Shown one piece after another: positions 15,096-62,835 of a DNA stretch of 64,000 nt. Under the pieces are notes generated by a model that saw only the letters and a list, made by a program, of their open reading frames with translations, did not search any database and was not told the DNA's origin. The stretch comes from Patescibacteria group bacterium (GTDB lineage Bacteria > Patescibacteriota > Minisyncoccia > Phycocordibacterales > UBA1550). Where the stretch lies: assembly GCA_038062675.1 (NCBI GenBank), contig JBBTWP010000001.1, positions 186,059 to 250,058 on the forward strand, written 5' to 3'. The translations under genes were made by a program, and so were the position numbers. Positions within the stretch are counted from its first letter, which is position 1. Each line of letters starts with the position of its first letter.

Positions 15096-15977
15096 TTATT
15101 GCTGACTGACCAAAGGAACAGTAGTCTTGCTGGTCATGGCGCGAGCGACAAGTTCCGGAGAAAATCCCTGCGGAGGGGTGCCGGTGCGAGCGTACTCATA
15201 AAGTGCCATTTTGAAAATAGCGCTGAGTGATGAAAAAACAATACTCAGAATCACGACATAGAGAACGAATACTACCCCCACACCAATAGCAACTCGCACA
15301 TCACCTGCAAGCACAACGGCGCCAATGCTTGCCAGAAAACCGAGAAGAATAAGATGTGACGAGACGAGCCCAACGCCTACATTGCCAATAATGGTTTCTC
15401 CCCATGTTTTACGAATCATGGTAGCAGACTCTTTGAATGAGCCAGCGACGCTCATGTTTCCAACTACAATAAGCGGGAGGCTGAAATACGTGAGCAAATT
15501 CCATGCTGCCCCAAACAGAAATGCGACAATTTTTCCAATAAGTTCTGAACGATCCGCTATTGCGCGGAGCAGGACTCCGACTGTTGCCGAAATGCAGGAC
15601 CAAATAAAAATAGCACCAACGCGATGCAAGCTACCCCGTACACCGTCCATGAATGACAGGTCTTGTCCCGACATGCGTGCATGCGCAATAATAAAAATAC
15701 ATGCTTCAAAAAAATAGATGATGAAACACAAGATGATGTAGTAGCCGAGAAGTACGAGATAATGCCATGCGCTGGTAGCAGCTTGTTCGGGCGGGAGTGT
15801 TCCAATATCACTCAGACTTACGCCAAGAATCGCAAAAACGTATATTAATCCCATAATGCAGAGCGCAACACCCGTAGTGATCGCTGAAACGACCGGAAAC
15901 AACATGATCTCCTTGTCTTGTTTCAAGATTGCCCACGACTGTCGCACAATAGCGAGGCTCGTTGCAAACTTCCCCAT
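15096..15977 (-). CDS. polytopic membrane protein, unknown function
   Basis: Multiple TM helices. Start placed at internal MGKFATSL; the upstream extension is uncertain. Confidence 0.5.
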   Translation of the reverse strand: MGKFATSLAIVRQSWAILKQDKEIMLFPVVSAITTGVALCIMGLIYVFAILGVSLSDIGTLPPEQAATSAWHYLVLLGYYIILCFIIYFFEACIFIIAHARMSGQDLSFMDGVRGSLHRVGAIFIWSCISATVGVLLRAIADRSELIGKIVAFLFGAAWNLLTYFSLPLIVVGNMSVAGSFKESATMIRKTWGETIIGNVGVGLVSSHLILLGFLASIGAVVLAGDVRVAIGVGVVFVLYVVILSIVFSSLSAIFKMALYEYARTGTPPQGFSPELVARAMTSKTTVPLVSQQ

Positions 15978-16111
15978 TTTGACCGGCTGCGTTGGTGTAA
16001 TTGGTGGCATAATAGTATACTCACATACTATCATATTTGCGCACAAAAGGGCTACGCGTGCATTATGATTAAAAAAACCGCCGGTCGTTTGACTGGCGGC
16101 TCTGAAAACTA

Positions 16112-16963
16112 CTACACAAGAACTTCACGAAGAATTTTATTTACGTATGCCATTGATGTATCACCCGTGAGGACAACATCAAATGTATCTTCGTTGAGTT
16201 TGAGATTTTTATCAGTTGTTTCATTGAAAAATGAAATGCTCAACAGATTGTGGTAATCAAACCCCTGCACCATGCCAATATCACTCGGACTATCACCAAG
16301 AAGGATGACATTTTTTCGGTTCTTGATGGCATCAAATGCAGGATAATCTCGAATTGCGGTCTCGTACTTGTTGAGTGAGTGAATGATGGGCTCACGAAGT
16401 GCGGTTGCTCGCCCTGCACTATCCCACTCGTACACATTAGAGATAATGTGTACGTTGTCAGTCAGTTTTCCTGCGTGCTCCAGATAAAGACTAACCCCAT
16501 CAACGCCAAGCCCACTTGCTGACATGATAACAAGAGGAACATTATGTGCATTGAGCACATCGGCAAATTCAGAAAACTCCTCACGCAATCGAACTTTACC
16601 GGACGAAACTACTTTCTCAAGATCGCTCTTGTTAAGCCCAGATTCAATCAAGAGTTTTGCGTGCATGCGCCACCACTCATCCATCGCTTTCCACTTTTCC
16701 GCAAAAGGGACAGTGGGGTCGATTTCAATAGCATGATATTTGTCAAAAAGTGCGTGAGCGTTTTCTGTATAGTCCGGTGTCAAATAATTGCCATCACGCA
16801 ACACTGAGATGAGCGATGGTACGCTTTTGCCATCGACAAATGCGGTCGTAAGGGTGCGGTCAAAATCTGCTAATACGTGCAGATTTTCAGCGCCACCCTC
16901 GCGGATAACCTTCAATATTTCGTCGAAATGTTCGGGGTTTCGTATGATAATTTCTTTTTGCAT
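16112..16963 (-). CDS. HAD-superfamily pyrimidine 5'-nucleotidase (UMPH-1/cN-III-like)
   Basis: HAD motif I ADFDRTLT and overall resemblance to cytosolic 5'-nucleotidase III. Confidence 0.65.
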   Translation of the reverse strand: MQKEIIIRNPEHFDEILKVIREGGAENLHVLADFDRTLTTAFVDGKSVPSLISVLRDGNYLTPDYTENAHALFDKYHAIEIDPTVPFAEKWKAMDEWWRMHAKLLIESGLNKSDLEKVVSSGKVRLREEFSEFADVLNAHNVPLVIMSASGLGVDGVSLYLEHAGKLTDNVHIISNVYEWDSAGRATALREPIIHSLNKYETAIRDYPAFDAIKNRKNVILLGDSPSDIGMVQGFDYHNLLSISFFNETTDKNLKLNEDTFDVVLTGDTSMAYVNKILREVLV

Positions 16964-17116
16964 AGGGTGTCCTCTTTTGTTTGGTTGAACATCTATTCCA
17001 CACAGTACTATTTTCGATCAATTTAGTAAAGACCGTGTGCTGGAATGTGTAACACCTTTTCGATTTATTTAAGGATACAATTTGTTTTTTACAGACAGTA
17101 ATTTTCTGTAAATAAA

Positions 17117-17150
17117 AGCCCTCTGTTTTGAACAGAGGGCGTAGAGGGAA
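17117..17150 (-). terminator. rho-independent terminator
   Basis: gccctctgttcaaaacagagggc hairpin followed by a T-rich tract on the minus strand. Confidence 0.55.
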
Positions 17151-17155
17151 ACGAT

Positions 17156-17464
17156 TTATGAAATAGTGTACGCTCCTTTTGGTCCATCAAGTTTTTGGTC
17201 CCACTCAGGGTAATCACCTTCGGGAATATGACCAGTCCACATAATGACAACAAAACTGTAAACATATGTAGAACGTGTCACTTTTCCAACACTGATCTCA
17301 CTGTTTTTAGCTTGCGGAAATGTTTTTCTAAGCAAACGGGCCATTCTTGCGATGGCAGTGAGGCTTGAATCGTAGTCCTTAAGCAAGTGAACATTTGCGC
17401 ATCTCTCTCCCTCTTTGTTTCTGGGCAGGTCGTTTCTCCAATAGATGTACTGATAGGTCGCCAT
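17156..17464 (-). CDS. hypothetical protein
   Basis: 102-aa ORF with a terminator downstream. Confidence 0.4.
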   Translation of the reverse strand: MATYQYIYWRNDLPRNKEGERCANVHLLKDYDSSLTAIARMARLLRKTFPQAKNSEISVGKVTRSTYVYSFVVIMWTGHIPEGDYPEWDQKLDGPKGAYTIS

Positions 17465-17564
17465 GAATTTCCTCCTGATGAATGGTTGTGTATAAATCCA
17501 CTAACATTTACTCTGAAATATACAATACACTATCAAGTGCATTTTGTCAACTAGCCTTGGGTAT

Positions 17565-19061
17565 TTAACGACTCTGCAACACTCGAAAAATCTCTACCAT
17601 AGCTAGGGTGTCGAGTGCGCAGTATTTGAGGAGGTTTGTTTTAGAGATTTCAATTTCGTCCGCAGTCATCTCGCCCTTAATCATCTTTTCCCATTCACTG
17701 AGTGCCATGGTGCCGTTTTGGATATCGAGACTTTTGTACGAGAGCTCGGGGAGGAGTACGGGAAGCACTTTTTTGATCGAGGCACTCCCTTGGAAGTCGG
17801 GGTGTTGGTAGTCGTCCTTAAACACTTTCATCAAATCAAAGATTCTGTTGTTGATGTCCTGCAAGAATTCACGGTGTTCAGGGTGGAGTTCAGCAAGCTC
17901 GATATTCCTTCCCTTTTCAAAACTTTCGTACCATACGATGACGCTACCGGTTGGACTAATGTGTGTTCGCAACATCTCAACGAGTCCGCTTGTTGCATTT
18001 TCAAGTTGGTCGGCCAGATATTCAAAATGAGTAAGCGTGCCATCAGCGTCAAGTCTGTGCACAGAGACTTGGAACACGATCTGTTGATTGGTTTTGTAGC
18101 CGTCGAGAAGCGGGATGGGGGTGCCGTATGTTTCGTAGTCGAGAAAATAGAGTGGAAAAACGAGCTGGGAGAAAGTCTTGCGAATTGCAGTGCGGTTGAT
18201 TATGGGTGAGCCTGTTTTTTGAAGGGTTACTTTATTGCGCTGAATGTCGGTGAGGTCAAAATCTTCGGGAATGTCATGGATTTCAAGAATATCTTGATCA
18301 AGGAGAAGTTTGAGTTTATTTCCCTGCACAATGTGGTGCACTGAGTATTCGGGAACCTGTGGATTGAACTTAAAAAAACAATCACAGCGTTGTCCGTGGC
18401 TTTTGTAGAGACAACTACACTCTGCGAGTGAGATATCGTCTTGTTTGAGGAGCGTAAGTGCACGGGCGATCTCTTCGCGTACCTCCTCTTTTTCTTCGCG
18501 GATGCGCTCGGTGACATTTTCGACGATAAAAAGTTGTCTGATGTCCACCTCTCCCCTCCGGCGGTATTCTTTGTTGATGTAAATGATGTAGCTATCCCCT
18601 ACTTTCACCCCCGCGTCTTCCGCCACAATCGTCTGAAAACCAACATCTTTTATGTGGTTGTGCTTAAGGTCAGTTTTTATTTCTGAACTCGCTTTTATTT
18701 CATAGATATCCCACGCGTGTGTTTCTTGATTGAAATCCAAAACATCTATTTTTGCAAAGAGTCCGTCGGCGGTTTCAAACGTCGCCTGGAAAATGGGTTT
18801 GTCGCCACGCAAAAGTTCCTGTGTACGCGCAAGGAGTGTCTCTTTGTTCCCGGACACTGCGACACCGTCGGGGAAAAGTTTCTGCACATACTCCTCCACT
18901 TCGTAACCATCTTTAATGAGTTTTTGCAGGAACAACGAAAACTCACCGGGGGTGTATTCCTCGGGGCGTTTTTTCTTGAGCCACAAACACTTGTCGCACA
19001 AGAGAAATTCTTTAAAATCTGTTTTGGTGAGGGTCATGATGATGTGTGTTTTATGGTTCAT
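17565..19061 (-). CDS. DUF2779-like protein with Cas4/RecB-type PD-(D/E)xK nuclease features
   Basis: Cys clusters LLCDKCLWL and CSCLYKSHGQRCDCFF (Cas4-like Fe-S). C-terminal DUF2779-like region. The true start may be the internal Met at about 19037. Confidence 0.6.
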   Translation of the reverse strand: MNHKTHIIMTLTKTDFKEFLLCDKCLWLKKKRPEEYTPGEFSLFLQKLIKDGYEVEEYVQKLFPDGVAVSGNKETLLARTQELLRGDKPIFQATFETADGLFAKIDVLDFNQETHAWDIYEIKASSEIKTDLKHNHIKDVGFQTIVAEDAGVKVGDSYIIYINKEYRRRGEVDIRQLFIVENVTERIREEKEEVREEIARALTLLKQDDISLAECSCLYKSHGQRCDCFFKFNPQVPEYSVHHIVQGNKLKLLLDQDILEIHDIPEDFDLTDIQRNKVTLQKTGSPIINRTAIRKTFSQLVFPLYFLDYETYGTPIPLLDGYKTNQQIVFQVSVHRLDADGTLTHFEYLADQLENATSGLVEMLRTHISPTGSVIVWYESFEKGRNIELAELHPEHREFLQDINNRIFDLMKVFKDDYQHPDFQGSASIKKVLPVLLPELSYKSLDIQNGTMALSEWEKMIKGEMTADEIEISKTNLLKYCALDTLAMVEIFRVLQSR

Positions 19062-42702: not shown

Positions 42703-44211
42703 ATGGGAGAAAAACGCAGCAAAAGTCTTGTGCACCCAAGTGCACACGATATTATAGCCCTCATGAAAGCACCGACGGCAAAAGACCGAGCGGTCATAGA
42801 AAAAGCGTATGCATTTGCAGAAAAAGCGCATGAGGGGCAAACTCGTTACTCAGGCGAACCCTACTTCAACCACGTTGCTTTTGTAGCGCAAAATTTGGCA
42901 ACTATCAAAATGGACACTATCACAGTGGCGGCAGGACTCCTCCATGACACCATCGAGGATGCCAATGTGCCTGAAAAAACTATTGAGCAAGAATTTGGAA
43001 AAGAAGTATTATTCCTCGTTCTCGGTGTCACCAAACTTGGCAAACTAAAATATCGTGGCGTTGAGCGTCACGTCGAAAGTTTGCGGAAATTTTTCGTTGC
43101 TATGTCCGCGGACATTCGCGTCCTCCTAATCAAGCTCGCTGATCGGCTCCACAACATACAAACTCTCGAACATGTTCCGGAGGAAAAGAGGAAACGTATC
43201 GCGATTGAGACCCTTGAGGTTCACGCACGTCTTGCCGACCGCCTCGGCATGGGTAAGTGGAAAAGTCTCTTTGAGGACGCGGCGTTTAGGTACGCGTATC
43301 CAAAAGAATACATGGAAACTGCCGCCATCATCAAAACAAAACGAGTTACCGATGAAAAATATGCCGAAAAGATTTACCGGTCCATTCAAAAAGAACTCGT
43401 CGCAAATGGCATTAAAACAGCACGTGTTGAATATCGCGTCAAAAATCTCTACAGTCTTTGGAAAAAACTGGCACGAAAAGAAAAAGACCCAAGCAAAGTG
43501 TACGATATCCTCGCGCTCCGTGTTATTGTGGATTCTCTTGAAGATTGCTACCGAGCGCTCGGAATCATCCATAAACACTGGCGACCAGTTCCGGGACGCA
43601 TCAAAGATTACATTGCTGTTGGAAAGCCCAATGGCTATCGCTCGCTCCATACCACAATCTTCCGCGGGGATGGAGGGATTGTTGAGATTCAAATTCGTAC
43701 GCGTGAAATGCACGAAGAAGCGCAGTACGGAATCGCTTCACATTTAGGGTACAAAGAAGGGAGCTCAGGAAACAATACCTTGCAGAAAAATGTTGCTTGG
43801 GTTAAAGAACTTGTAGATTTACAAAAAAATGTTACTAAATCGGAAGAATTTCTCGAGCACCTCAAAATGGACTTCTTTAAAAATCGCGTATTTGTAATGA
43901 CTCCAAAAGGCGACATAATAGACCTGCCCGAAGACTCAACGGCAATCGATTTTGCCTATGCCATTCATTCAAACATCGGCGACCATGTCGCGGGGGTAAA
44001 AATCAATCATAAACTCGTCTCTCTTGATACAAAACTAAAAAATGGCAACATCGTAGAGATTGAGACAAAAGAATCGGCGACGCCGAAAAGAAAGTGGCTT
44101 GATTATACAAAAACCACACTTGCAAAGAGGCACATCCGCGCACGACTTGAAGAGGCAAATTCTTCCAACCCGATTGAGATGCTTGCAAGAAAATTCTTTA
44201 GGAAAAAATAA
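42703..44211 (+). CDS. rel: short bifunctional (p)ppGpp synthetase/hydrolase (HD + RelA/SpoT + TGS)
   Basis: HD motif HDTIED. Synthetase region RSLHTTI...EIQIRTREMH. TGS-like C-terminus. 502 aa, lacking the ACT/RIS domains. Confidence 0.85.
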   Translation: MGEKRSKSLVHPSAHDIIALMKAPTAKDRAVIEKAYAFAEKAHEGQTRYSGEPYFNHVAFVAQNLATIKMDTITVAAGLLHDTIEDANVPEKTIEQEFGKEVLFLVLGVTKLGKLKYRGVERHVESLRKFFVAMSADIRVLLIKLADRLHNIQTLEHVPEEKRKRIAIETLEVHARLADRLGMGKWKSLFEDAAFRYAYPKEYMETAAIIKTKRVTDEKYAEKIYRSIQKELVANGIKTARVEYRVKNLYSLWKKLARKEKDPSKVYDILALRVIVDSLEDCYRALGIIHKHWRPVPGRIKDYIAVGKPNGYRSLHTTIFRGDGGIVEIQIRTREMHEEAQYGIASHLGYKEGSSGNNTLQKNVAWVKELVDLQKNVTKSEEFLEHLKMDFFKNRVFVMTPKGDIIDLPEDSTAIDFAYAIHSNIGDHVAGVKINHKLVSLDTKLKNGNIVEIETKESATPKRKWLDYTKTTLAKRHIRARLEEANSSNPIEMLARKFFRKK

Positions 44212-47216: not shown

Positions 47217-47289
47217 TCAACTGTGTAGACCCAACCCACTTTCATAGCTCGCACCAGAATTTGACCAAAATAGATAGTCAAAGTCTAAG

Positions 47290-47545
47290 CAGATTACACT
47301 CTGTGACCCTACCGGGAATCTCCCGCGACTCTCAGTTCGTCGTCACTCACCTCGGTCTGGGCACCGCCTCGCGGCCTCGCAAGGTTGCGCGACAACGCTC
47401 CGGCGTTCGATTCCCGGATGTTCAGTAAAACAGTAAGCCCCGAATGCTCCACGCATCCGAGGCTAACTGTTTTATGTGAGCCAAGCTTAACGACGTTCGA
47501 ACACTCATCGAATCCCGCGACCCAGAAACAATGACGGCGATCCAG
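47290..47545. ncRNA. candidate structured noncoding RNA (unassigned)
   Basis: About 300 nt free of credible ORFs, locally GC-rich. Internal repeats gaatctcccgcgac / gaatcccgcgac and gttcgattcccgg. No family motif identified. Confidence 0.3.
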
Positions 47546-47549
47546 AATA

Positions 47550-47759
47550 TTAAGATGCTTCTGGCTCGCAATCATGTAACGTTACTTCCATCAATTCATC
47601 GGCATGAACATCAGGGGGAAGAGGGCGTAGGAACAACCGATACATGTTAACTAAACGGCGTGCCATGAGCACAGCATCTTCACGGGAGATTCGCTCGTCG
47701 AAATTGCGCTCGTAGATTTCTATAAACTCGTTGATTGCTTCTTCGGTGAATTGCATCAA
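47550..47759 (-). CDS. hypothetical small acidic protein
   Basis: 69-aa ORF downstream of the RelA/SpoT-domain gene. Confidence 0.35.
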   Translation of the reverse strand: MMQFTEEAINEFIEIYERNFDERISREDAVLMARRLVNMYRLFLRPLPPDVHADELMEVTLHDCEPEAS

Positions 47760-47911
47760 GTAAGTGTATTGATTGTGGGATAAGTACTAAAGGGGGTGAA
47801 GTGTGCCTACACGACATAATTCCTCAATTGAAAGTATATTTTCGGATCGTTGAAGACATCAGTCAAGGTATAAAATATTACATCACAGTATGTACACTGC
47901 TACGTTCCGCG

Positions 47912-48877
47912 CTAGTCAAACGATATTCCGAACGCATTGGCAATGCGTTCTAGTTCGCGTTCGGGATAATGCGCACTCCACACTTTCCGAATCACAGCGG
48001 TGTCCGCACACAGTCGATCATAAATCATCAGTGCTTCAGGTTGATAAAGATAAGCACTTCGGTTGGGCGTGCCCTCGGCCTCCTCGTAAACTTCGCGAAT
48101 CACGTCTTCGTGTTCAGCGTAAAAATGATCAAGATGGGACACGATCTGTCGCGACTCTTTTTCATACAGCGGCATAAGTAAATGGATCAACGCAAGTGAT
48201 ATTTCTGGATCACCGCGTCGCGTCGTGAGTTTGTAGTAATGCCGCTCTAGCGACTTCAGCAAATCAAGTTCTGGGGTTGTAGGCGTTTCCATATTTAGCC
48301 TAGTAAATTCACTATCGGCTACCTCGACTACTCCTGCAAGAAGGAAAATTCGACGCTTTATCGAATTCGGCAACGGATTAAGGGTATCGTCATTCTTGTA
48401 GTAGGTGTCATGTGACATCTCAGACCACAAATGTTGGGCAAGGGTTCGCACTTGAAGTTCAGCTTGAAACTTTTGCGGCGGATAAGTGGCCACCAGCGGG
48501 TCGTCCGCACACAGTTTCACATCGACATGTACACTCAGATATCCGACTTGATCCAGTTTCAGCGTATCAGCCTTCTGCTCTGGCTGCCCGCACTTAAACG
48601 ACTTTTCGGCTAACGCCAAAACCGCGTCGACTTCATTCTTGTACCGAAGAATCACACGAATGCCGGACTTATCGCTCACCGATTCATAATTATGACTCGG
48701 CTTCTTGATCAACTTGCGAATGAAACCATCCATTTCCTTCGCACGGCTGGTTACATCAGCCCAGATGCCCGCTTGACGCAATTCAGTACGTAGCCGCTTT
48801 TCAAGTTCTTTGCCGAATTGCTCATACTTGGGCCTCTCTTGAAGCCAGCGCTTCCGGGCGGTTTCCAAATCGGTCAT
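47912..48877 (-). CDS. RelA/SpoT-domain nucleotidyltransferase (toxSAS/CapRel-like) with C-terminal extension
   Basis: GIRVILRYKNEVD, VGYLSVHVDV and ELQVRTLAQHLWSEMSHDTYYK match the RelA_SpoT synthetase fold. No HD or TGS domains. Overlaps the upstream gene by 4 nt (ATGA). Confidence 0.7.
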   Translation of the reverse strand: MTDLETARKRWLQERPKYEQFGKELEKRLRTELRQAGIWADVTSRAKEMDGFIRKLIKKPSHNYESVSDKSGIRVILRYKNEVDAVLALAEKSFKCGQPEQKADTLKLDQVGYLSVHVDVKLCADDPLVATYPPQKFQAELQVRTLAQHLWSEMSHDTYYKNDDTLNPLPNSIKRRIFLLAGVVEVADSEFTRLNMETPTTPELDLLKSLERHYYKLTTRRGDPEISLALIHLLMPLYEKESRQIVSHLDHFYAEHEDVIREVYEEAEGTPNRSAYLYQPEALMIYDRLCADTAVIRKVWSAHYPERELERIANAFGISFD

Positions 48878-49905
48878 TTATGCACAATGTTTTGTAGTTG
48901 ATCATGCACAACTATTTGGTCAGTTTCGATGTCGACCAGATGTTCCTCGTCAACAGGCACAGTTACTGTCACGCCCTTAATCGTGTAGAGCGACTTTCGA
49001 CGAAGCTTGCTTTGAATATCTGAGGTATCTTTCTCGAACCCTTGCAGCGAAACTCGGTTATCGGCAAGGAAGTCCGAGTACAGCTTTTGGTAACTGTCCG
49101 GGATGTAATCCTCTATAAATTTCTTGGGTATAATTTTTGTCTTCTTGGATTTCAGCTCCGACAGGAGATGCTCGTACACATCATTTTTCTCCACCGGATC
49201 AGTAATGTAACTGTTAACGAAATTAACAGTCGCATCAAACCACTTCTGCGTTGCGATACGCGGTTCTTCTGTGGCACGGCATCCCAAAAACCGCATCCAG
49301 AATCGTGCTACATCCGTGCTTCTGGTTACTGAGCGCTGGCTGTCACACGCCGCAGCGCGGAACGTGTTCTCGCCAGTTCTAATAAACAGCGCGGATTTAA
49401 AAAGACGCGTGCCATCGGTAAACACAAGGTTGTCGAGCACGGACATCTCAAACCTCCGTCTACCATCAATTGTGCGCAGCTCAAGGTCGGCACCTTGCTC
49501 GCGCTCCAACTTTAAAATAGCTAGGCTGGCACGGCCGGCGCTGGCGATATCAATGACACATAACAATCCTGGAGACATCTGACCGCCCTGTTGGTCAAAC
49601 AAGTATTGCGCCAGCCGTTGTGACATATCAACGAAGTGCTTGATCGAATGAGACTTAGCTGTGAACTTCCCCACTTCATCGGGAACCGGCGAGCTGGTCT
49701 CAGGAAGAAATTCAGTCTCGTAGGCAGATTTAGACCCTAGCGCCCGCGTTAGTCGATCCTTCAACATACCAGCCCGCGACGAATCAATCTCCGTTTCGGC
49801 ATCGGCCAGGGTTGGTATGTTCGTACCGCCCTTAGAATTGTTTGGTACGTCATGGAAAATGATGTGTCTGATTTTTAGTCTGGCGAGATCGTCGGATGTA
49901 ATCAT
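48874..49905 (-). CDS. NA37 (YejK/NdpA-like) nucleoid-associated-protein family member
   Basis: N-terminal LKIRHIIFHDV and mid-protein FWMRFLGCRA resemble E. coli YejK (INQIALHQLIK, FFMDFLGASE). About 340 aa, as in YejK. Confidence 0.6.
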   Translation of the reverse strand: MITSDDLARLKIRHIIFHDVPNNSKGGTNIPTLADAETEIDSSRAGMLKDRLTRALGSKSAYETEFLPETSSPVPDEVGKFTAKSHSIKHFVDMSQRLAQYLFDQQGGQMSPGLLCVIDIASAGRASLAILKLEREQGADLELRTIDGRRRFEMSVLDNLVFTDGTRLFKSALFIRTGENTFRAAACDSQRSVTRSTDVARFWMRFLGCRATEEPRIATQKWFDATVNFVNSYITDPVEKNDVYEHLLSELKSKKTKIIPKKFIEDYIPDSYQKLYSDFLADNRVSLQGFEKDTSDIQSKLRRKSLYTIKGVTVTVPVDEEHLVDIETDQIVVHDQLQNIVHK

Positions 49906-50149
49906 CTAAACGCTCACTCCCTTTGAGTCAAAAATAGCCTGCATGCCCGGGCCTCATTTATGTGACGCTGTGCCGCAGTGATTATCTTGATTTTTAAAAA
50001 GGCACCGATATTTCAAATGGCACCAAACGACAGGGGGTATTATAGACGCGTTACCCAACTGCGTAGCGCTAAATATGGCACAAATATTACGCACCACACG
50101 TAGTGATCGACACAGTGACTCATAAATTAGCCAACAAAAACCCCGCCAT

Positions 50150-50180
50150 CAGGCGGGGGTGTGCTTCTCTACTTTTTCCC
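50150..50180 (-). terminator. rho-independent terminator
   Basis: cccccgcctgatggcggggg hairpin followed by tttttg on the minus strand, downstream of radC. Confidence 0.75.
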
Positions 50181-50810: not shown

Positions 50811-50880
50811 CACGACGCGAGAATGTGCCGCGTGGACACGCTGCTAATCACTCAAACAGGCGGGTCATAATTCATGAAAA
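50811..50880. repeat. direct repeat R1 (about 70 nt)
   Basis: cacgacgcgagaatgtgccgcgtggacacgctgctaatcactcaaacaggcgggtcataattcatgaa. Related to R2 and R3. Confidence 0.7.
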
Positions 50881-51017: not shown

Positions 51018-52322
51018 GTGGGATATTTTCGGCAACTTACCGAAGCAGCAGATTGGCTAGTCACTCATCAAAATTTGGACGGAGGGTGGGGACTTAGCCC
51101 AAAGCAAGCTTCGTCAGTGGTAAATACGGCTGAATCAATATTTATTCTCGTAGAGGCAAACCACCTATGCGGTACTCATTACTCTGACCAGATTTTGAAG
51201 GGGTTTGAATTCATTTGGCGGCAACTACTAGAACAACTTGAAAAATATCCAAGAACTCGCTATGTCCAATTTGCGCTATGGAATTTCCCAAACCCAATAG
51301 TTGATTATCCAGGGGAGGTAAAGCGATACACTGAATGGCTTTTGGGCGCGCAAAATGATGATGGTGGCTGGGGGCACCACTCCAAGGACGGACAGTCCTC
51401 ACTCTTCCCGTCGGTACTTTCTTTGCTGGTATTGAATCGCCTCGGCACACTCACGAAAGAGAGTCGTGCAAAGGGCATTTCTTGGCTGCTTTCCAAAAGG
51501 GACGGGAAGGGGCTATGGGGATTTGTCTCTGGTCAACAAAGCAAAGTTGCAACCGCACAAGCTGTTCATGCTCTAGTAAATAACAAATATGAGATTGACG
51601 ATAGTGCAGTAAAAAATCTGATCGACTTTTTAAGTTCAGACTTGGATTGGGGTGTGGAAATTGAAAATGTGCCAGGGACAAAATGGGAGCATTCAAAAGT
51701 ACTGTGGATCGTGCCAAGCCTTCTTCTGCTTGGAACTGAGCCATATGAACATGTCATAGCCGACGCTGTTCGTAAAGTTAACACTCTACGGTATGAGAAT
51801 GGATGGAAAGAGCCCGATGGAGCAGAGACAATCCGCGGTCAGTTCTGGATTACAAGTATGTACGCCAAACTACATAAGGCTTTCGATCCAGCCATCGTGA
51901 CTTACAGAATTGAGTCAGCCTTATCAATCCAAAAACAAAAATACCTAGAGCCGGAGTATGTTCACCTCTTGCCCTCATCCAAATATTTTAGATTTGTGTT
52001 TCATTCACGCTGGTATCGCATAGCGACATATTTCTGTTTTTTCAGCAGCTTTTGTATACTGTTCCTTGTACCAACAATTGATTTGACCATTAAGAGATCG
52101 GCAATCGTTAGTGCATTATCAGTCCTAACCGTGAGCTTGTTTGCATCCTCGCTCATTCTTATAAAGAAACGAAAATCTTTTTTCCCTCCTTGGATAAGCA
52201 AAGGAATATTTCCGATTATTATAGGGATTATTATAGTCTTCGAGATTGTGAGTGCTGCGTTAGGAATAAGCGTACAGGATATTTATAAAATATTGTTAAC
52301 ACCCGCAATAACTTCCAAATAA
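51018..52322 (+). CDS. prenyltransferase/squalene-cyclase-repeat (alpha-toroid) protein with C-terminal TM helices
   Basis: Repeated (D/N)GGWG motifs: HQNLDGGWGLS, AQNDDGGWGHH, KRDGKGLWGF. Three or four C-terminal TM segments. Confidence 0.6.
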   Translation: MGYFRQLTEAADWLVTHQNLDGGWGLSPKQASSVVNTAESIFILVEANHLCGTHYSDQILKGFEFIWRQLLEQLEKYPRTRYVQFALWNFPNPIVDYPGEVKRYTEWLLGAQNDDGGWGHHSKDGQSSLFPSVLSLLVLNRLGTLTKESRAKGISWLLSKRDGKGLWGFVSGQQSKVATAQAVHALVNNKYEIDDSAVKNLIDFLSSDLDWGVEIENVPGTKWEHSKVLWIVPSLLLLGTEPYEHVIADAVRKVNTLRYENGWKEPDGAETIRGQFWITSMYAKLHKAFDPAIVTYRIESALSIQKQKYLEPEYVHLLPSSKYFRFVFHSRWYRIATYFCFFSSFCILFLVPTIDLTIKRSAIVSALSVLTVSLFASSLILIKKRKSFFPPWISKGIFPIIIGIIIVFEIVSAALGISVQDIYKILLTPAITSK

Positions 52323-52324
52323 TT

Positions 52325-52735
52325 ATGCAGTACATGTACAAAATAGGACTTGCACACATAAGAAACAACAGATTACTTTTGTGCCGTCCATTCGCATTTG
52401 ACCCCCTGATTCTTCCAGGCGGTTTGAAAAAAACAGGGGAATCACCGGTTGAAAATCTGATGCGGCAGATCGTCGAAGAGCTTGGCGGAGGGGCTCATTT
52501 GGAAACCAGTTCTCTCCGTTACTTGGGTAATTTCTCAGATTTTGCGGCTGGCAAAACAGAAAGGATTGTAGAGATTGAACTATATAGCGGGGAGTTGTCA
52601 GGAACTCTTGTAGCTTCTTCTGAGATACAGGAACTCAAGTGGTTCTCACCAACAGATGATTGGGAAACGCTTTCCCCCATAATTAAAAACAAGATACTTC
52701 CGTTCCTCATACAGAATGGTTCTTTATTGAAATAA
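52325..52735 (+). CDS. NUDIX hydrolase
   Basis: Nudix box PGGLKKTGESPVENLMRQIVEELGG. Separated from the upstream gene by 2 nt. Confidence 0.65.
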   Translation: MQYMYKIGLAHIRNNRLLLCRPFAFDPLILPGGLKKTGESPVENLMRQIVEELGGGAHLETSSLRYLGNFSDFAAGKTERIVEIELYSGELSGTLVASSEIQELKWFSPTDDWETLSPIIKNKILPFLIQNGSLLK

Positions 52736-53873: not shown

Positions 53874-53940
53874 CACGACGTGGGAATGTGCCGCGTGGAC
53901 ACGCTACTATTTGTTCAATCAGGCAGGTCGTAATTCATGA
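53874..53940. repeat. direct repeat R3 (about 70 nt)
   Basis: cacgacgtgggaatgtgccgcgtggacacgctactatttgttcaatcaggcaggtcgtaattcatgaa. Shares extended similarity with R1. Confidence 0.7.
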
Positions 53941-54019
53941 AGTGCAATCTTTCCGCACGACGCGAAAAGTGTCTGTAAGGACATGGCTTCCGTGCCGTGT
54001 ATTCCCCTGTGTACTAGGT

Positions 54020-55216
54020 ATGCTTTCTTTCATGAAGAAGCATGTACCCATCTCGTATTTCGGAGTAACCAACGGACGGAAGAAGCTGCGGTTCGGTATC
54101 AAAGAGCGCGACCGGCTTTTTCACCTGTACGCCATTGGCAAGACCGGTACCGGAAAATCGACACTTCTGGAAACGCTGGCGCGTCAGGATATACGGCACG
54201 GGCACGGTCTGTGTGTCATTGACCCCCACGGTGATTTGGCAGAGCGGCTGGTAGCGTATGCGATGGGTGTGCGCCGAGGTGACCTCATCTACCTTGATGC
54301 TGCGGACATCACTCAGCCGTACGGATACAACCCACTACGGCGTGTGCGAAAAGACAAAGTACCACTTGCAGTGTCAGGCCTTCTTGAGGCATTCAAGAAG
54401 CTGTTTGACGATGCGTGGGGAGTGCGTATGGAGCACATATTTCGGAACACGCTCTATGCCTTGATCGAGTATGGCAACGCGACGCTCCCCGATGTGCTCC
54501 GCATGGTATCTGATGCCAAATTCCAGAGGGACGTGCTCAAACACGTGGAGAATGTACAGGTGCGGAAATTCTGGGAAGAGGAATTTCCGCACTACAATCC
54601 GCGCTACCGGCAGGAGATGATCTCCCCCATTCAGAACAAAATCGGTGCCTTCTTGGCCGACCCCCGACTCCATCGAATATTCACGGAACCACCGGTTGAC
54701 CTCCACTTCCGCCACATCATGGATACGGGAAAAATCCTCATCGTTAATCTCGCCAAAGGGCGGTTGGGGGACGACAGTGCGAATTTGTTGGGAGCCTTAC
54801 TCGTTACCACGCTCAGTCTTGCTGGGTGGTCCCGGAGTGAGATTCCCGAACGAGAACGTCGCAACTTTTTTGTGTATCTCGATGAGTTTCAAACCTTCAC
54901 CACGCTTTCCGTGACGAATGCGGTTTCTGAACTGCGGAAGTACGCTCTGGGGTTCGTGCTTGCCAACCAACACCTCCACCAGCTCACCGAGGACGTGCGG
55001 CATGCGGTGCTCGGGAATGTCGGTACCATCATCACCTTCCGTGTGGGGCCGGAGGATGCACGCATTCTTGCGCGTGAATTTAGTCCGGTGTTTTCCCCTG
55101 AAGACTTGTCGAGCCTTCCCAACCACGACATCTACGTGAAGCTCATGATCGACGGTGCGCCGGGGAGGCCGTTCAGTGCGACAACGCTCCATCCCCAAAA
55201 CCAAGAAGCATCTTGA
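54020..55216 (+). CDS. TraD/TrwB/HerA-like P-loop ATPase (FtsK-HerA superfamily)
   Basis: Walker A AIGKTGTGKST, IDPHGDL and FVYLDEFQTF (Walker B). The ORF-track start at 53888 is a GTG inside repeat R3, so the start is taken at ATG 54020. Confidence 0.6.
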   Translation: MLSFMKKHVPISYFGVTNGRKKLRFGIKERDRLFHLYAIGKTGTGKSTLLETLARQDIRHGHGLCVIDPHGDLAERLVAYAMGVRRGDLIYLDAADITQPYGYNPLRRVRKDKVPLAVSGLLEAFKKLFDDAWGVRMEHIFRNTLYALIEYGNATLPDVLRMVSDAKFQRDVLKHVENVQVRKFWEEEFPHYNPRYRQEMISPIQNKIGAFLADPRLHRIFTEPPVDLHFRHIMDTGKILIVNLAKGRLGDDSANLLGALLVTTLSLAGWSRSEIPERERRNFFVYLDEFQTFTTLSVTNAVSELRKYALGFVLANQHLHQLTEDVRHAVLGNVGTIITFRVGPEDARILAREFSPVFSPEDLSSLPNHDIYVKLMIDGAPGRPFSATTLHPQNQEAS

Positions 55217-55277
55217 GGGATATGGCATGAGGGAGTCTAATGCAAAGCTTCGCAAACGATCATGAGGGGAGAACATC

Positions 55278-55784
55278 ATGGGAAAGGTCGTACCGGAAAC
55301 CATCCTTTCGCATTGGAACACTATGGTCCAGGGGATGAAGCATTCGTCGAAGAGCTTCTATGATTCTGTTGAGCAAATCTTGGGTGCCCACCATCTTGAA
55401 CATATCAAGATTGAGCGTGTGAATCTTTTCGAGGGCAGTATTCTGTCCGCGAAACGCGAGTATCTGCAAATAAGGCGAGAAGCGTTGGTGTTTCATATCT
55501 GTGCCGCACCGTTCGGCAACGGCTTCTTTGTTTCGTGGTGGCTGGGAGAACGGGAAAAAGGATTCTTTGCACTCTTGGCGCGTATTCCCGTTATTGGTTT
55601 TTTCCTCCGCTCTGTACTGAAGCCTCTTACCTACTACAAATTTGATACCACAGGCATGTTTCAGTCGGTAACCCACGCGGCGGTGCTCGAAACGCTGGAT
55701 GCCGTGGTGAATGCGCAGGGCATACGGGCACTGTCCGACCTTGACCGGAAGCCGATCATGCGTGATTTCTTCGGGCGTACGTAG
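55278..55784 (+). CDS. hypothetical protein
   Basis: 168-aa ORF between the two ATPase genes. Confidence 0.4.
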   Translation: MGKVVPETILSHWNTMVQGMKHSSKSFYDSVEQILGAHHLEHIKIERVNLFEGSILSAKREYLQIRREALVFHICAAPFGNGFFVSWWLGEREKGFFALLARIPVIGFFLRSVLKPLTYYKFDTTGMFQSVTHAAVLETLDAVVNAQGIRALSDLDRKPIMRDFFGRT

Positions 55785-55801
55785 CGCTTCGTGAGTCTCT
55801 C

Positions 55802-58800
55802 GTGACACGCCCCCTTGCAGAGCGCATTACCGAAAGCTTCTACGCATGGGAATTGCGGGGACGTGGGTGGTCCCTTTCCGATTACCCGGTATCCCTTGAG
55901 CCGCCCTACCGACCAATCTTTTTGCTTCCTTCGCAAGGTAATGACGGCGTGTGTGACGACGGGAAACGGCCAACATTTCTTTCCTCGCTCGCGTTGGTGA
56001 CAAAGAATATTTGGAAGAGCGGCAATCATCCCTTTCCAGCTCTTCCCGCTCCACCCTTCGAGGAAATGCTGCCATTCCCCGCTCCCCCGTCCAGTGAGCG
56101 TGCAACACTTACGATACGGGTACCGGCGGATTTCGCGGCACAGGTCGAGGTTGCACAAAAGCTTCTGCTTACACTCTCGACCGCGCTTCAACCTCTTTGC
56201 TTTGAAATTGTAGGTCGGTACAAATCTGTGGTGTTTCAAATTACCTGCGCCGCATCTGACACGACCCACGTCATTGAAACCATCCGTGGATATGTCCCCG
56301 ATGCGGTCGTTACCGAAGAATCCGATATTTTGGTGGACGCGTGGGATATCAGAGAAGAGGGCGCCGTTATTGACTTCGGCCTGTCCCACGAATTCTTTCT
56401 GCCGCTTCAAGCCGTCAATTCCTTCACCATTGATCCATACATTCCCCTCGTTGGAGCGCTCGGGCAGATGGGTGCAGACGAGTTGGGCTGCGTTCAAATA
56501 CTCTTCGCGCGGGTCAGGAACCCATGGGCAGAAAGTGCCAGAGATGCGGTGAATGACGGCAAAGGCGGGTGCATTTTTGCCGACGCGCCAGAATTTGTGA
56601 AGCTCACGCGCGAGAAAACGGAAACGCCGCTCTTTGCGGTAGTGATTCGTATTGCAGCACAAGGAATGGCACCAGAACGGGCATGGAGTATTGCGCGTTC
56701 TCTCGGAAGCTTCTTTCTTCAATTCGCACGCTCGGGCAGCAATGAACTCATACCGCTCGACAATGACGCATACCCCGACGAACTGCATACGCAAGCGCTC
56801 CTTGCACGCGAGAGCTACCGCACGGGAATGATTCTTTCCCTTCCAGAACTCTCCGGGTTGGTGCACTTCCCTGACGCATCCGTTCTCCATGAAGCGCTTC
56901 ACCGTGAACGTAAATCCACCAAAGCACTTCCCGAGGTAGCGCTCGGTCATCATTTGATTCTGGGAGAAAATATACACCGGGGTATTTGCACGCCGGCGAC
57001 ACTGGGGACTAGTGACCGGCTCCAACATGTACATGTGATTGGTGCTTCGGGTACCGGGAAATCTACGCTTCTCCTCAACCTCATCGAGCAGGATATTGCA
57101 AAGGGTGAAGGTGTCGCTGTCTTTGACCCCCATGGAGACTTGATCGAAGAAATTCTTGCGCGTGTTCCCGAGGAACGTACTCACGACGTGGTGGTATTTG
57201 ATCCCGGTGATGAAGCGTGGCCCATGGGATTCAATGTACTGTCTGCAACCAGTGAAATTGAAAAGAACCTCATTGCATCCGACATGGTGGGCATCTTCAA
57301 ACGCTTAGCGACAAGCTGGGGCGACACTATGAGCGCAGTGTTGGGGAATGCGGTGCTTGCCATGCTCGAAGGTAAGCAGGGCGGAACGCTTCTCGATCTG
57401 CGGCGTTTTCTCCTTGATGACATGTTTCGGAAGCGGTTTCTCGCCGAGATTGCTGATGAGGAAATCCGTTTCTTCTGGCACAAGGAATACCCGCTCATCG
57501 GTTCCCGCTCCATTGGGCCGATCCTCACCAGATTGAACGCATTCCTTCGCGCCAAGCTCATCCGTAACATTGTGGGGCAGAAGGGTGGCACGCTCGATAT
57601 TTCAAAAATCATGAACGTGCGCAAGGTGCTCTTGGTTAAACTTTCTCATGGCATCATCGGTGAAGAGAACGCGCACCTTCTGGGAAGCTTACTCGTGAGC
57701 AAATTCCACCAGTCGGCGCTCCTCCGACAACAGGTAGCTAAAGACTCGCGCAGTCCGTATTTTCTTTACCTTGATGAATTTCAGCACTTCGTCACGCCTT
57801 CAATGTCATCCCTCCTTACCGACTCACGGAAATATGCATTGGGGCTTACCTTGGCGCATCAGACGCTTGCACAGCTTGATGATTCTCCTGTGAAGAGTGC
57901 GGTCCTTGGCAATGCGCATACGCGCATCGTGTTTCGGGTTGATTACGCTGATGTGGCGACCCTTGCACGCGGGTTTGCTTCCTTTGATGCAGAGGATGTG
58001 CAGAACCTGTCGCGGGGGGAGGCGGTGGTCCGAATGGGGCGTGCGGAGAACGACTTTAATCTGCACACGTTCCCCGCGACGCATATTGAACAAGATGTGG
58101 CACGAGCACGGAGCGCATCCGTTATTGCACATTCACGAGAGATGTTTGCGACACCGCGTGCCGTACTCGAAGAAGGGTTCCGTACAGCACAGGAGCCGCA
58201 GGAAGCGGCGGTGGTTGGTGCGGTAACAGTTGCAGAAGAAAAACGAGAGGCGACGCAAAAGGAAAAAGCACTTGCCACCCGTAAACGCGAAATCACTCCT
58301 CCTGTTCTACCACCATCTCCACCAACTCTCCGGGCACACCCCATTCCCCCACCGGAACCGTCACCCCTTGGCCGGGGCGGGCAGGAACATAAGTACCTTC
58401 AACATCTGGTGAAGCGATTAGGTGAGGAGCGGGGGTTTCGCGCAATCATTGAAGAACAGGTGCCGAATGGCCAGGTTGACGTGGTGCTCCGCAAAGAATC
58501 GTTGGTGATTGCTTGTGAAATTTCAATCACCACGAACGTCGATCACGAAGTCGAGAATATCCAAAAATGTCTGGCTTCAGGGTTTACTAAAATTCTCTTC
58601 ATTACGCCCGATGCAAAGCGGCGCGAAAAAGTCGGAAAAAAGCTGAAGGAGGTTCCGAATGGAACACTTGTTGACCTATTGGGACCGGAAGACATTTTGC
58701 CTACTTTGGATCGGCTTGATACCATGACGCCGACCCAAACAACAGTGCGGGGTTACAAGGTGAAAGTGACACGGCAAACGCTCTCCCCCGCAGATGTTGC

Positions 58801-58864
58801 AGAGCGGCGGTCGGTGGTGGCGCAGGTTATTGCGCGGTCGCTTTCAAGAGTGAAGAAGGGGTGA
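55802..58864 (+). CDS. large multidomain protein: unknown N-domain, TraD/HerA-like ATPase, Pro-rich linker, C-terminal nuclease-like domain
   Basis: Second Walker A VIGASGTGKST, FDPHGDL, FLYLDEFQHF. C-terminal VDVVLRKE...HEVENIQKC resembles a restriction-endonuclease-like fold. Confidence 0.6.
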   Translation: MTRPLAERITESFYAWELRGRGWSLSDYPVSLEPPYRPIFLLPSQGNDGVCDDGKRPTFLSSLALVTKNIWKSGNHPFPALPAPPFEEMLPFPAPPSSERATLTIRVPADFAAQVEVAQKLLLTLSTALQPLCFEIVGRYKSVVFQITCAASDTTHVIETIRGYVPDAVVTEESDILVDAWDIREEGAVIDFGLSHEFFLPLQAVNSFTIDPYIPLVGALGQMGADELGCVQILFARVRNPWAESARDAVNDGKGGCIFADAPEFVKLTREKTETPLFAVVIRIAAQGMAPERAWSIARSLGSFFLQFARSGSNELIPLDNDAYPDELHTQALLARESYRTGMILSLPELSGLVHFPDASVLHEALHRERKSTKALPEVALGHHLILGENIHRGICTPATLGTSDRLQHVHVIGASGTGKSTLLLNLIEQDIAKGEGVAVFDPHGDLIEEILARVPEERTHDVVVFDPGDEAWPMGFNVLSATSEIEKNLIASDMVGIFKRLATSWGDTMSAVLGNAVLAMLEGKQGGTLLDLRRFLLDDMFRKRFLAEIADEEIRFFWHKEYPLIGSRSIGPILTRLNAFLRAKLIRNIVGQKGGTLDISKIMNVRKVLLVKLSHGIIGEENAHLLGSLLVSKFHQSALLRQQVAKDSRSPYFLYLDEFQHFVTPSMSSLLTDSRKYALGLTLAHQTLAQLDDSPVKSAVLGNAHTRIVFRVDYADVATLARGFASFDAEDVQNLSRGEAVVRMGRAENDFNLHTFPATHIEQDVARARSASVIAHSREMFATPRAVLEEGFRTAQEPQEAAVVGAVTVAEEKREATQKEKALATRKREITPPVLPPSPPTLRAHPIPPPEPSPLGRGGQEHKYLQHLVKRLGEERGFRAIIEEQVPNGQVDVVLRKESLVIACEISITTNVDHEVENIQKCLASGFTKILFITPDAKRREKVGKKLKEVPNGTLVDLLGPEDILPTLDRLDTMTPTQTTVRGYKVKVTRQTLSPADVAERRSVVAQVIARSLSRVKKG

Positions 58865-60783: not shown

Positions 60784-62763
60784 CTAGAAAATATCTACTC
60801 CCAAAAACCCATTCATCAATTCCCGCCACCGCCCCCTCGGTACCGTCTCACCACTCTCCCAAACCCGCCACGTCCCCTCGTCGACACCAAGGTGCCGTGC
60901 TGCTTCCTTGAGGGACCAGCCCATCGCGCGCCGTTTGGCGAGCAGGCGTTCAGGAAGGCTCTCCGGCTTCGGAAAGGGGTCGTAGCCTAAGAAGCGGAAG
61001 ATGGCGGGCATGGACGCAATCGGTGGTTCAGTTTTCGTCTTCTCCCAATTTAGTACCGTGGCAGAACTGACCCCGAGGAGCTTCCCGGCTTCTCGTTGGT
61101 TGAGCTTCATTTCCTTACGTCGCTTGTGAATATGCTCGCCCAAAGTTTGGGGCATAATTTCGGTTTCCTTTGGTTTCAATGCTTTAAGGCACACGCGGAC
61201 GTATGGCAAGAAGGCAACGCGTCTATGAGGTTTCGTTGCCATTCCGCCACCGTCTAAGAGGGTAGGGGGAGTGTCCGGCGTTTCAGGGGTGAAGGGGGTC
61301 TCGGTGGAAGTCACAGAAGCAGGTGGTGCATAGAAGAGGTGGATTTCTACTTCGCCGACGTGAACAATGATCCGCTCAGTAATGGCCTCCACGATTTGGC
61401 GCTTTTCTTCGTTAGGAAGCGTTGGCCAACGGGTATAGAGATCACGGGCGCTGGTGACGATTTCCTCCTGCGAGAGGTGGGAGATTTTGAGGACATCCAG
61501 TTCCGCTTGTACCTGAGGAAGTTCCTCTTCGAGTTGCCGTTGCCGCAAGGCCATTGGGTGGTATTTTGCTCCGAAGCCTGCCTTGTCAATTGCGCTTGAT
61601 TGGTAGAGGTCATAGAGCTTGTCTACTTCGGCAGCAAGCTTCTTTTGTTCCTTGTGGAGCACCGTGAGGAGTTCTTCTTTTTCATGAATGGCGGCGTGTG
61701 CCTTGCTCAAGTGCGCGGCGATTTCATGGGGTGAAAAGAAGAAGTTTTTGATCTGTTCGTGGAATACCCCCTCCAAGTCAACAACCGGGATTTTGTTGCG
61801 GCAGGCGTAACAGACGTATTTCGGAGTGTTGGACGGCACATACATTTTTTGGCCACAGCCGCAGTGGGTAAGCCCAGCAAAGAGGTGGACGGTTTGCCTC
61901 GCTAGGCGCTTCCCTTTCGCCCTTTGACCGTCCAAGATGGCATTGCATTCGTTCCAGAGTTCTTCGGGGACGATGGCTTCTACTTCAAGGAGCACCCATT
62001 CACTTTCAGGCTTCCGTTCCCATGTCTTTTTGTTGTTCTTTGTTTGGGTGTAGTTTGCGCGACGGATGCCCTTGGCGGTTGGGTCGCGCAAAAGGCGGTC
62101 TACCGTCGTGTCGGAAAACAGTGAGCCGTTCCGGGTGCGGTAGCCACGTTCATTGAGGAGCCGTGCCACGGTTTTCTTGCGGCGGTATTCCCGAAAGAGT
62201 TCGTACATGAGCTTTCGTACCGGTGCTTCCTTGAGGTCAGGAATAAGCTTTCGATCTTTCCACTGATAGCCGAAAGGTGCTTGGCCACCGAGCGGCTTCC
62301 CCATCTTGGCGCGGATAGGGACCGATGCGGCAACCCGCTGCGCGATTTCCTCACGTTCCCACTGCGCCATGGCGGCAATCATCGTATAGAAGAGGCGGCC
62401 TGCTGGGGTTGAGGTGTCGATGGATTCCCCGAGCGATATGAGGTCAGCATTGTACGTGCGGAACTCTTCCGCGAATTCGAGGAGTTCTCGGGTGTTACGG
62501 GCAAGGCGAGCGAGCTTCGAAAAGATGATGCCGGTGATGTGGCCCTTCTTGATGTCACCCAGCATGCGCTTGGCTTCGGCGGTTTCTTTGACAGTCTTTC
62601 CCGAAATGGCGTCAAGACGGTACACCTCGATCACGTCCCAGCCTTTCGCTTCGGCGTAGTGGCGAGCGCGGCGTTCGTGGTGCTCGGGTGATTCCCCTCT
62701 TACTTGATCTTCGGTCGAGACACGAATCCAAATGCCGACCCGTTTGGAGCTTTCAGCGTGCAT
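60784..62763 (-). CDS. large serine recombinase fused to C-terminal tandem XRE-type HTH domains
   Basis: Resolvase N-domain VGIWIRVSTEDQ with catalytic Ser. Recombinase and zinc-ribbon regions. C-terminal LNQREAGKLLGVSSATVLNWEK and SLKEAARHLGVDEGTWRVWE HTH motifs. SD gggagga upstream of ATG 62763. Confidence 0.8.
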   Translation of the reverse strand: MHAESSKRVGIWIRVSTEDQVRGESPEHHERRARHYAEAKGWDVIEVYRLDAISGKTVKETAEAKRMLGDIKKGHITGIIFSKLARLARNTRELLEFAEEFRTYNADLISLGESIDTSTPAGRLFYTMIAAMAQWEREEIAQRVAASVPIRAKMGKPLGGQAPFGYQWKDRKLIPDLKEAPVRKLMYELFREYRRKKTVARLLNERGYRTRNGSLFSDTTVDRLLRDPTAKGIRRANYTQTKNNKKTWERKPESEWVLLEVEAIVPEELWNECNAILDGQRAKGKRLARQTVHLFAGLTHCGCGQKMYVPSNTPKYVCYACRNKIPVVDLEGVFHEQIKNFFFSPHEIAAHLSKAHAAIHEKEELLTVLHKEQKKLAAEVDKLYDLYQSSAIDKAGFGAKYHPMALRQRQLEEELPQVQAELDVLKISHLSQEEIVTSARDLYTRWPTLPNEEKRQIVEAITERIIVHVGEVEIHLFYAPPASVTSTETPFTPETPDTPPTLLDGGGMATKPHRRVAFLPYVRVCLKALKPKETEIMPQTLGEHIHKRRKEMKLNQREAGKLLGVSSATVLNWEKTKTEPPIASMPAIFRFLGYDPFPKPESLPERLLAKRRAMGWSLKEAARHLGVDEGTWRVWESGETVPRGRWRELMNGFLGVDIF

Positions 62764-62835
62764 ACGTCCTCCCTTTGGTAGGGTGAGCAGGCGCACATTT
62801 TACGACAGAGGGTGAGAATTGTGGTGATGGTTTAG

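Follow-up and report, generated by a model that had tools for sequence, protein, structure and literature searches.

Two genes in one operon

We describe here a pair of overlapping genes from a Patescibacteria group bacterium (assembly GCA_038062675.1, contig JBBTWP010000001.1), found in a stretch of 64,000 nucleotides that we will call the window and whose numbering is used throughout. Both genes lie on the minus strand. The first encodes a YejK/NA37-like nucleoid-associated protein (NAP) and the second a protein of the small alarmone synthetase (SAS) type. We will argue that this pair is a new, divergent member of a recently described architecture of phage defence operons, termed PANGU, carried by a mobile element in a Patescibacteria genome, and not a new kind of system.

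The NAP gene (48874..49905) encodes 343 amino acids (38.9 kDa) and the SAS gene (47912..48877) encodes 321 (37.4 kDa). They are coupled by a 4-nt ATGA stop/start overlap (48874..48877), which can be read directly at their junction, ...CAT AAA TGA / ATG ACC GAT. The positions, the overlap and the operon structure are thus exactly those proposed in a preliminary description of this DNA, and the family assignments made there also held in profile searches. The NAP matches Pfam NA37 (PF04245) over residues 16-333 with 63.5 bits for a cut-off of 24.6 (E 2.8e-17), while in the SAS only RelA_SpoT (PF04607) is matched, over residues 44-163, with 63.5 bits for a cut-off of 27. A Pfam scan of the 321-aa protein gave neither an HD nor a TGS domain, and the motifs on which the SAS-only architecture had been proposed are present in the translation. 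None of the NCBIfam scores supports orthology of either protein to YejK, YjbM or RelA, all of them being far under the cut-offs. In particular, the NAP scores 18.4 bits on the YejK equivalog, for which the cut-off is 341, and it is therefore a member of the family and not an orthologue.

The AlphaFold model of the NAP (pLDDT 81.4) has a sole significant match in the PDB, E. coli YejK (NdpA; 9be2, E 6.6e-10, 345 aligned columns). The two proteins thus share their fold and their Pfam family, but E. coli YejK is a standalone and abundant housekeeping nucleoid protein, unlike the NAP of the window. Relatives of both the NAP and the SAS are also found in PHROG families.

The synthetase and its C-terminal domain

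The model of the SAS was built from 22 sequences (pLDDT 86.5, pTM 0.80). It comprises a synthetase part (residues about 1-165), with an N-terminal helix and an alpha/beta core at about 40-160, then a long helix at 171-197 that leads into a C-terminal domain made of helices only (202-315). In a Foldseek search against the PDB, alarmone synthetases of the RelQ/RelP type come on top (2be3, 3l9d, 5ded; E about 1e-8). These are the best matches in both structure and sequence for residues about 25-195 and they have the same catalytic motifs, but RelQ and RelP are chromosomal core genes of Firmicutes, their products are of about 200-230 aa, and they have neither such a C-terminal domain nor a NAP partner.

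The residues R45, K47, K55, D69, K70, G72, R74, Y113, H117, E140, Q142, R144, H156, Y160 and K161 are invariant in a deep alignment that took in the operon proteins of E. coli, Klebsiella, Clostridium, Ochrobactrum and Streptomyces that will be presented below. We equate them with Rel(Seq) motifs, namely those for the ATP phosphate, the Mg-binding Asp, the G-loop Tyr and the catalytic Glu. The active site is thus intact and the enzyme looks active.

The C-terminal 121 residues of the SAS have a net charge of -8 and a pI of 5.2, and this part of the protein carries a net negative charge in each of the 22 family members (range -1 to -14), while that of the synthetase part stays close to zero throughout the family (+2 to -5). 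This acidity is a bulk charge calculated from the sequence, as distinct from surface electrostatics. The C-terminal domain is as conserved as the catalytic core in the family alignment. When used alone as a phmmer query against 1.84 billion protein representatives, it matched 229 clusters. Almost all of the near-full-length matches (about 300-340 aa) carry it at residues ~200-320 of a SAS-sized protein, the sole exception being a protein of 3832 aa in which 12 short matches recur, presumed to be spurious. Many matches are shorter, and the 12 that were inspected (12/12) are truncated SAS gene calls. A standalone form of the domain, or its fusion to other effectors, was considered and rejected: the matches of 168-170 aa start at the internal Met of an EM[SA]HD motif and the other short matches inspected are N-terminally truncated SAS fragments.

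This domain had been compared with the pseudo-zinc-finger domain of CapRel, a likeness that the model does not bear out, as it shows an acidic, all-helical domain that is not zinc-finger-like, and CapRel (7ztb) comes only at rank 33 among the Foldseek matches, with a TM of 0.35. CapRel(SJ46) is also a SAS-only enzyme of the toxSYNTH fold with a regulatory C-terminal domain, and it is also involved in phage defence. However, it is encoded by a single gene, its pseudo-zinc-finger C-terminal domain auto-inhibits the enzyme and senses a capsid protein, and its target is tRNA, whereas the window SAS is accompanied by a separate and strictly conserved NAP. The pair was for these reasons not classified as a fused toxic small alarmone synthetase (toxSAS) of the CapRel type. 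A match to the PADLOC profile PDC-S33 (residues 17-152 on positions 43-175 of 349, 52.8 bits) was likewise set aside, as it covers the shared synthetase core only.

Conservation of the pair

A search with the SAS gave 411 homologues with E under 1e-5. The 120 of them that were listed are of about 320 aa and conserved over their full length, apart from one 296-aa partial sequence. Homologues of the NAP (488) are frequently found on the same contigs as those of the SAS. Most members of the window clade are Acidobacteriota; some are Gammaproteobacteria, and this Patescibacteria genome also belongs to it. The loci were scanned in one genome per species, which gave 20 full-length loci, mostly from Acidobacteriota/Terriglobia and one from a gammaproteobacterium. 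In 20/20 of them, and down to 41% SAS identity, an NA37 homologue lies directly upstream on the same strand and abuts or overlaps the SAS start. The identities of the NAP and of the SAS to the window copies drop in parallel (r = 0.91). The genes around the pair vary from one locus to another, and include integrases, KfrA, TIR_2 and Schlafen/AlbA_2 genes. Because the NAP is upstream in every locus while the flanks differ, the conserved unit is exactly NAP plus SAS. The co-conservation that the preliminary description had made a test of its reading is thus established, and the pairing is beyond chance.

The closest relative of the pair, with 87% NAP identity, lies among cobalamin, GGDEF/EAL and LysR genes, which is clearly a different genome context and not of the Patescibacteria type. 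Such an identity in a different context points to recent horizontal transfer. Elsewhere, one close homologue of the pair is found near a TIR_2-domain gene (locus L026, 168-1607) and another adjoins a Schlafen/AlbA_2-domain gene (locus L032, 2348-3700). Both domains are known from defence systems, and these neighbours hint at a placement in defence islands in other genomes.

Relationship to type I PANGU

The pairing was first thought to be undescribed. This is no longer the case, as a bioRxiv preprint of April 2026 (10.64898/2026.04.06.716658) defines PANGU as bicistronic operons for defence that centre on a YejK-like NAP, and its type I has the same architecture as the window pair. Our literature searches for NA37 with RelA/SpoT, or YejK with alarmone, returned solely this preprint. 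Type I PANGU consists of the NAP Pag1A and of Pag1B, a toxSAS of the GRel subfamily in which a helical linker joins the N-terminal toxSYNTH domain to an acidic C-terminal domain that mimics DNA; the Methods name the genes "NA37 and gRel", and some type I operons include a SLATT-domain gene (10.64898/2026.04.06.716658). The name gRel for a subgroup of SAS dates back to 2011 (PMC3153485). Pag1A, Pag1B and the pair are all non-toxic. Pag1B alone is an inert tetramer and its isolated synthetase domain is inactive, but Pag1A binds the C-terminal domain of Pag1B with nanomolar affinity to give an active 2:1 complex, which converts ATP and GTP into AMP and pppGpp and leaves tRNA unlabelled (10.64898/2026.04.06.716658). 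During infection, phage nucleases degrade the chromosome, Pag1A is freed and leaves the nucleoid, pppGpp synthesis by Pag1B is switched on and the infection is aborted. The T4 escape mutations are in endonuclease II, and a DNA-binding-deficient Pag1A renders the pair toxic. Pairs related to that of the window protect directly against T4 and Bas34 (10.64898/2026.04.06.716658). The guess that the window pair could be a phage-defence configuration fits this literature.

The bioinformatic criteria of the preprint are a match to IPR007358/PF04245 below 1e-10, a NAP of at least 300 aa and a partner on the same strand at less than 40 bp, with linkage to defence genes serving as a filter and not as part of the strict definition. 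The window NAP matches PF04245 at E 2.8e-17, has 343 aa and the YejK fold, and it overlaps its partner by 4 nt. The partner is a SAS-only protein with an intact site, including the G-loop Tyr (Y113), the helical linker 171-197 and the acidic C-terminal domain. The order of the genes, with a stop/start overlap between the YejK/NA37-like gene and the SAS-only RelA/SpoT gene, is also that of type I PANGU, as are the location in a mobile or variable region and the movement between phyla. The proteins are of 38.9 and 37.4 kDa in the window, and of 40.6 and 37.5 kDa for the P. aeruginosa PANGU. The window pair differs in that it belongs to a divergent clade and in that the optional SLATT/DUF4231 gene is absent; the text of the preprint names neither Patescibacteria nor Acidobacteriota.

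The two can also be bridged through related operons. A tblastn search recovered operons with a NAP gene ahead of a RelA/SpoT gene, on plasmids from Ochrobactrum, Streptomyces, Klebsiella and Clostridium botulinum, and a DNA search with the Klebsiella operon led to a chromosomal operon of E. coli strain KFu023 that encodes a DUF4231 protein, a NAP and a GTP pyrophosphokinase. DUF4231 is, we presume, part of the SLATT superfamily. All the proteins of these operons pass Pfam NA37 or RelA_SpoT. The Ochrobactrum-type SAS family has 1974 homologues, and it aligns with the SAS family of the window at an hhalign probability of 99.5% (E 2.6e-23) over 306 columns, the C-terminal domain being included. 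The Ochrobactrum-type SAS is linked at 34-39% identity to proteins of Klebsiella, Clostridium botulinum and Neisseria, while the E. coli operon entered the set only through the DNA search seeded with Klebsiella. In the SAS of E. coli, Klebsiella and Ochrobactrum, residue 129 is the G-loop Tyr, as given for the Pag1B of F. futtsuensis (Ff); it is Y113 in the window clade. We therefore consider the pair to be type I PANGU-like by its architecture, in a divergent clade that includes the Streptomyces form.

Proposed mode of action and alternative explanations

We give a probability of roughly 70% to the reading in which the pair is a type I PANGU-like abortive-infection module, with an alarmone synthetase gated by a NAP, riding at the edge of an integrated element, of the conjugative or mobilisable type, as part of its cargo. 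The NAP would be the Pag1A-like sensor and activator and the SAS the Pag1B/GRel-like effector. The YejK-like NAP, probably a dimer, would sit on chromosomal DNA while the synthetase would be held in an inactive oligomer. Phage nucleases that shred the chromosome would free the NAP, which would then attach to the DNA mimic that is the acidic C-terminal domain of the synthetase, and the active complex would form. This complex would move pyrophosphate from ATP to GTP/GDP, giving (p)ppGpp and draining nucleotides, so that transcription and translation would stop and the infection would abort. The trigger, the stoichiometry, the product and the fact that the NAP would activate rather than neutralise its partner are all transposed from what the preprint reports for distant relatives. 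The C-terminal extension had been suspected of making the synthetase self-neutralising, but in the characterised systems this domain binds the NAP and the isolated synthetase is inactive, so it does not behave as an internal antitoxin.

Several points weigh against this interpretation. The homology to the Pag1A and Pag1B that were tested, those of F. futtsuensis, P. aeruginosa and E. coli, is indirect and the likeness was drawn from their description. With either window protein as query, no entry for Pag1A or Pag1B was found in the PDB, and the Ff Pag1A/Pag1B residues R258, R306, H314 and K200, R203, K204 could be mapped onto none of the operon proteins recovered, while Y129 could. Between the window clade and the proteins of the E. 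coli operon, identity is just 21-24%: 24% over the full length for the NAP (E 2e-16) and 21% for the SAS, in the synthetase part only, where pairwise BLAST detected no match between the C-terminal domains. The preprint is not peer-reviewed. The product, be it pppGpp, ppApp or a tRNA modification, cannot be read from the sequence, and the model presupposes that phages of Patescibacteria degrade host DNA. Finally, among the window neighbours scanned against PADLOC there is no confident match to a known defence system, and hence no linkage of the kind used as a filter in the preprint; the only matches are weak ones, of the mad8/HerA type, on coupling ATPases.

A more elaborate reading, which we hold only tentatively, is that the window pair stands for a distinct clade of NAP-gated synthetases, of deep divergence, which conjugative-type elements would have carried between Acidobacteriota, Gammaproteobacteria and Patescibacteria, and which may be set apart from type I PANGU by a more strongly acidic C-terminal domain or by another product or trigger. 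If this were true, abortive infection of the alarmone type would have been noted here for the first time in an ultra-small Patescibacteria cell that depends on a host.

The same gating by the NAP could also lead to another output, namely the pyrophosphorylation of the tRNA CCA end, as for CapRel, FaRel2 and PhRel2, or the synthesis of ppApp, as for FaRel. These are the outputs of the toxSAS enzymes to which the window SAS was first likened. Such a change is conceivable at about 21% identity to the E. coli operon SAS, given that acceptor specificity is not readable from sequence and that CapRel is among the structural matches, albeit at rank 33. We nevertheless find it unlikely, as the best structural matches are the RelQ/RelP alarmone synthetases and as the characterised Pag1B makes pppGpp and does not label tRNA. 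The near-neutral synthetase part is not strongly basic either, which argues against a tRNA-binding surface, although an argument from bulk charge is a crude one.

The pair was also proposed to be a toxin-antitoxin (TA) system, and in its classical type II form the SAS would be constitutively toxic and the NA37 protein upstream its antitoxin. The overlapping genes in antitoxin-first order and the location on a mobile element are those of such systems, and the toxSAS enzymes known earlier were toxins paired with antitoxins (10.64898/2026.04.06.716658). Yet neither gene is toxic in the characterised NAP-toxSAS pairs, nor are the two together, and the NAP is required for the activation of the enzyme. 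Moreover, the partner is here a 343-aa globular protein of YejK fold and not a small labile antitoxin. The FaRel/PhRel arrangement, with a small antitoxin or a small alarmone hydrolase (SAH), was examined too and rejected, there being no adjacent HD-domain gene and the small open reading frame downstream (orf69, see below) not being conserved with the pair. A type II TA system is thus improbable. Least probable of all, and very much so in our opinion, is a role outside of immunity, in which the pair would tie the state of the nucleoid to the alarmone level as a stress-response or element-maintenance module, stabilising the element, for instance, or slowing growth after DNA damage: the pair does lie at the edge of an integrative element with no confident known defence system adjacent in the window, and any extensive DNA damage could in principle free a nucleoid protein, but its patchy distribution across phyla, the 87%-identical copy in a very different context, the PHROG relatives of both proteins, the variable flanks with TIR and Schlafen/AlbA_2 genes and the direct protection by related pairs against T4 and Bas34 all argue for defence.

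Under the type I PANGU-like reading, the range of these modules takes in a divergent clade as well as Patescibacteria and Acidobacteriota, an added value that is modest. The reading also raises the question of whether alarmone-based growth arrest and the sensing of genome integrity operate in ultra-small episymbionts with a reduced stringent-response machinery, the Rel of this host being of 502 aa.

Flanks of the operon

The intergenic region upstream of the NAP gene (49906..50180, minus strand) contains a terminator-like hairpin after RadC (50158-50141), a TATAAT box (50044-50039) that we infer to be the promoter, and a GGGAG ribosome-binding site about 11 nt ahead of the NAP start. Downstream, and as first noted, are a 69-aa open reading frame and a structured noncoding stretch. 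The latter (47217..47549, minus strand, 333 nt) folds better than its shuffles (z -4.05) and includes a long hairpin (47464-47436) with A and T runs on its sides, as in a bidirectional terminator. It matches no Rfam family or tRNA, probably closes the transcription unit and lies where the island meets the host genes. With a hairpin after RadC, a ribosome-binding site and a hairpin downstream, the pair, possibly together with orf69, therefore looks like a transcription unit of its own.

The small open reading frame, orf69 (47550..47759, minus strand), encodes an acidic product (pI 4.45, net charge -9) and is called as a gene in all the assemblies of this genome. It belongs to no family of Pfam, PADLOC, NCBIfam or PHROGs, and tblastn gave no match beside the pair in the related loci examined (L001-L022). 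It was therefore rejected as a third component and probably lies outside the conserved module. That it modulates the NAP as a locus-specific DNA mimic would be a weaker addition to the reading in which the clade is distinct.

The mobile element and its other cargo

As had been reported in part, the neighbours of the pair in the window are RadC, a prenyltransferase-like membrane protein, a NUDIX protein, ArdC, two TraG/VirD4-type coupling proteins and a large serine recombinase with helix-turn-helix (HTH) domains, while host-type genes are found to the left (HAD hydrolase, ParB and the 502-aa Rel). The mobile-island setting proposed for the pair was correct. The two coupling ATPases (442 and 1020 aa) and the 670-aa recombinase, which has two HTH domains, are encoded at 53888-58864 and 60784-62796, and their genes are of 54-55% GC. 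Taken together, these genes have the look of an integrative element, conjugative or mobilisable, lodged in a Patescibacteria genome, and NCBI attributes the exact proteins of the pair to a Patescibacteria MAG. Within the window, neither its right end nor a direct repeat bracketing it was found, and there is no tRNA or Rfam match near the edge of the island at 47.2-47.9 kb. A chimeric assembly can be dismissed, since the junction between the island and the host genes (HAD, ParB, Rel, TopA, DprA, SerRS) recurs in independent Hainich groundwater assemblies, on contigs of 265, 36 and 14 kb; the linkage is therefore not an artefact.

The pair had been placed in a compositionally foreign block, which holds in part. 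Its GC content is 48.7%, against 45.2% for the host part, and its tetranucleotide distance is raised (0.32, against about 0.19-0.26 for most host windows). However, the host DNA at 26-32 kb comes close, with 0.28-0.30, and it is the 53-59 kb and 61-64 kb regions that are clearly foreign.

A DUF4231-NAP-SAS operon also lies at the far end of an integrative mobilisable element in E. coli KFu023 (NZ_CP091662.1, locus 7854-17636), which is inserted at tRNA-Thr and carries an integrase and a relaxase. The cargo layout is the same in both, and the module rides the far edge of the integrative element, opposite the recombinase.

The long RelA/SpoT homologue of the host (42703-44211, plus strand, 502 aa) has HD, synthetase and TGS domains and is devoid of the C-terminal ACT/zinc-finger domain (ZFD) region. 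With 3.7 kb between this gene and the island, a (p)ppGpp hydrolase capacity of the host adjoins the imported synthetase.

RadC and ArdC are gene types known from the leading regions of conjugative elements. Just 5' of these two minus-strand genes is found a 68-nt direct repeat, 85% identical between its copies (50811-50878 and 53874-53941) and containing a hairpin (50833-50815), which may be a shared promoter or a single-strand promoter element. Between the two copies, on the plus strand (51018-52735), lie the genes of a 434-aa membrane protein with prenyltransferase/squalene-cyclase-like repeats and of a 136-aa NUDIX hydrolase, the latter with a weak match to PADLOC PDC-S07 (E 1.5e-4). Their GC content of 43% is below that of the rest of the island.

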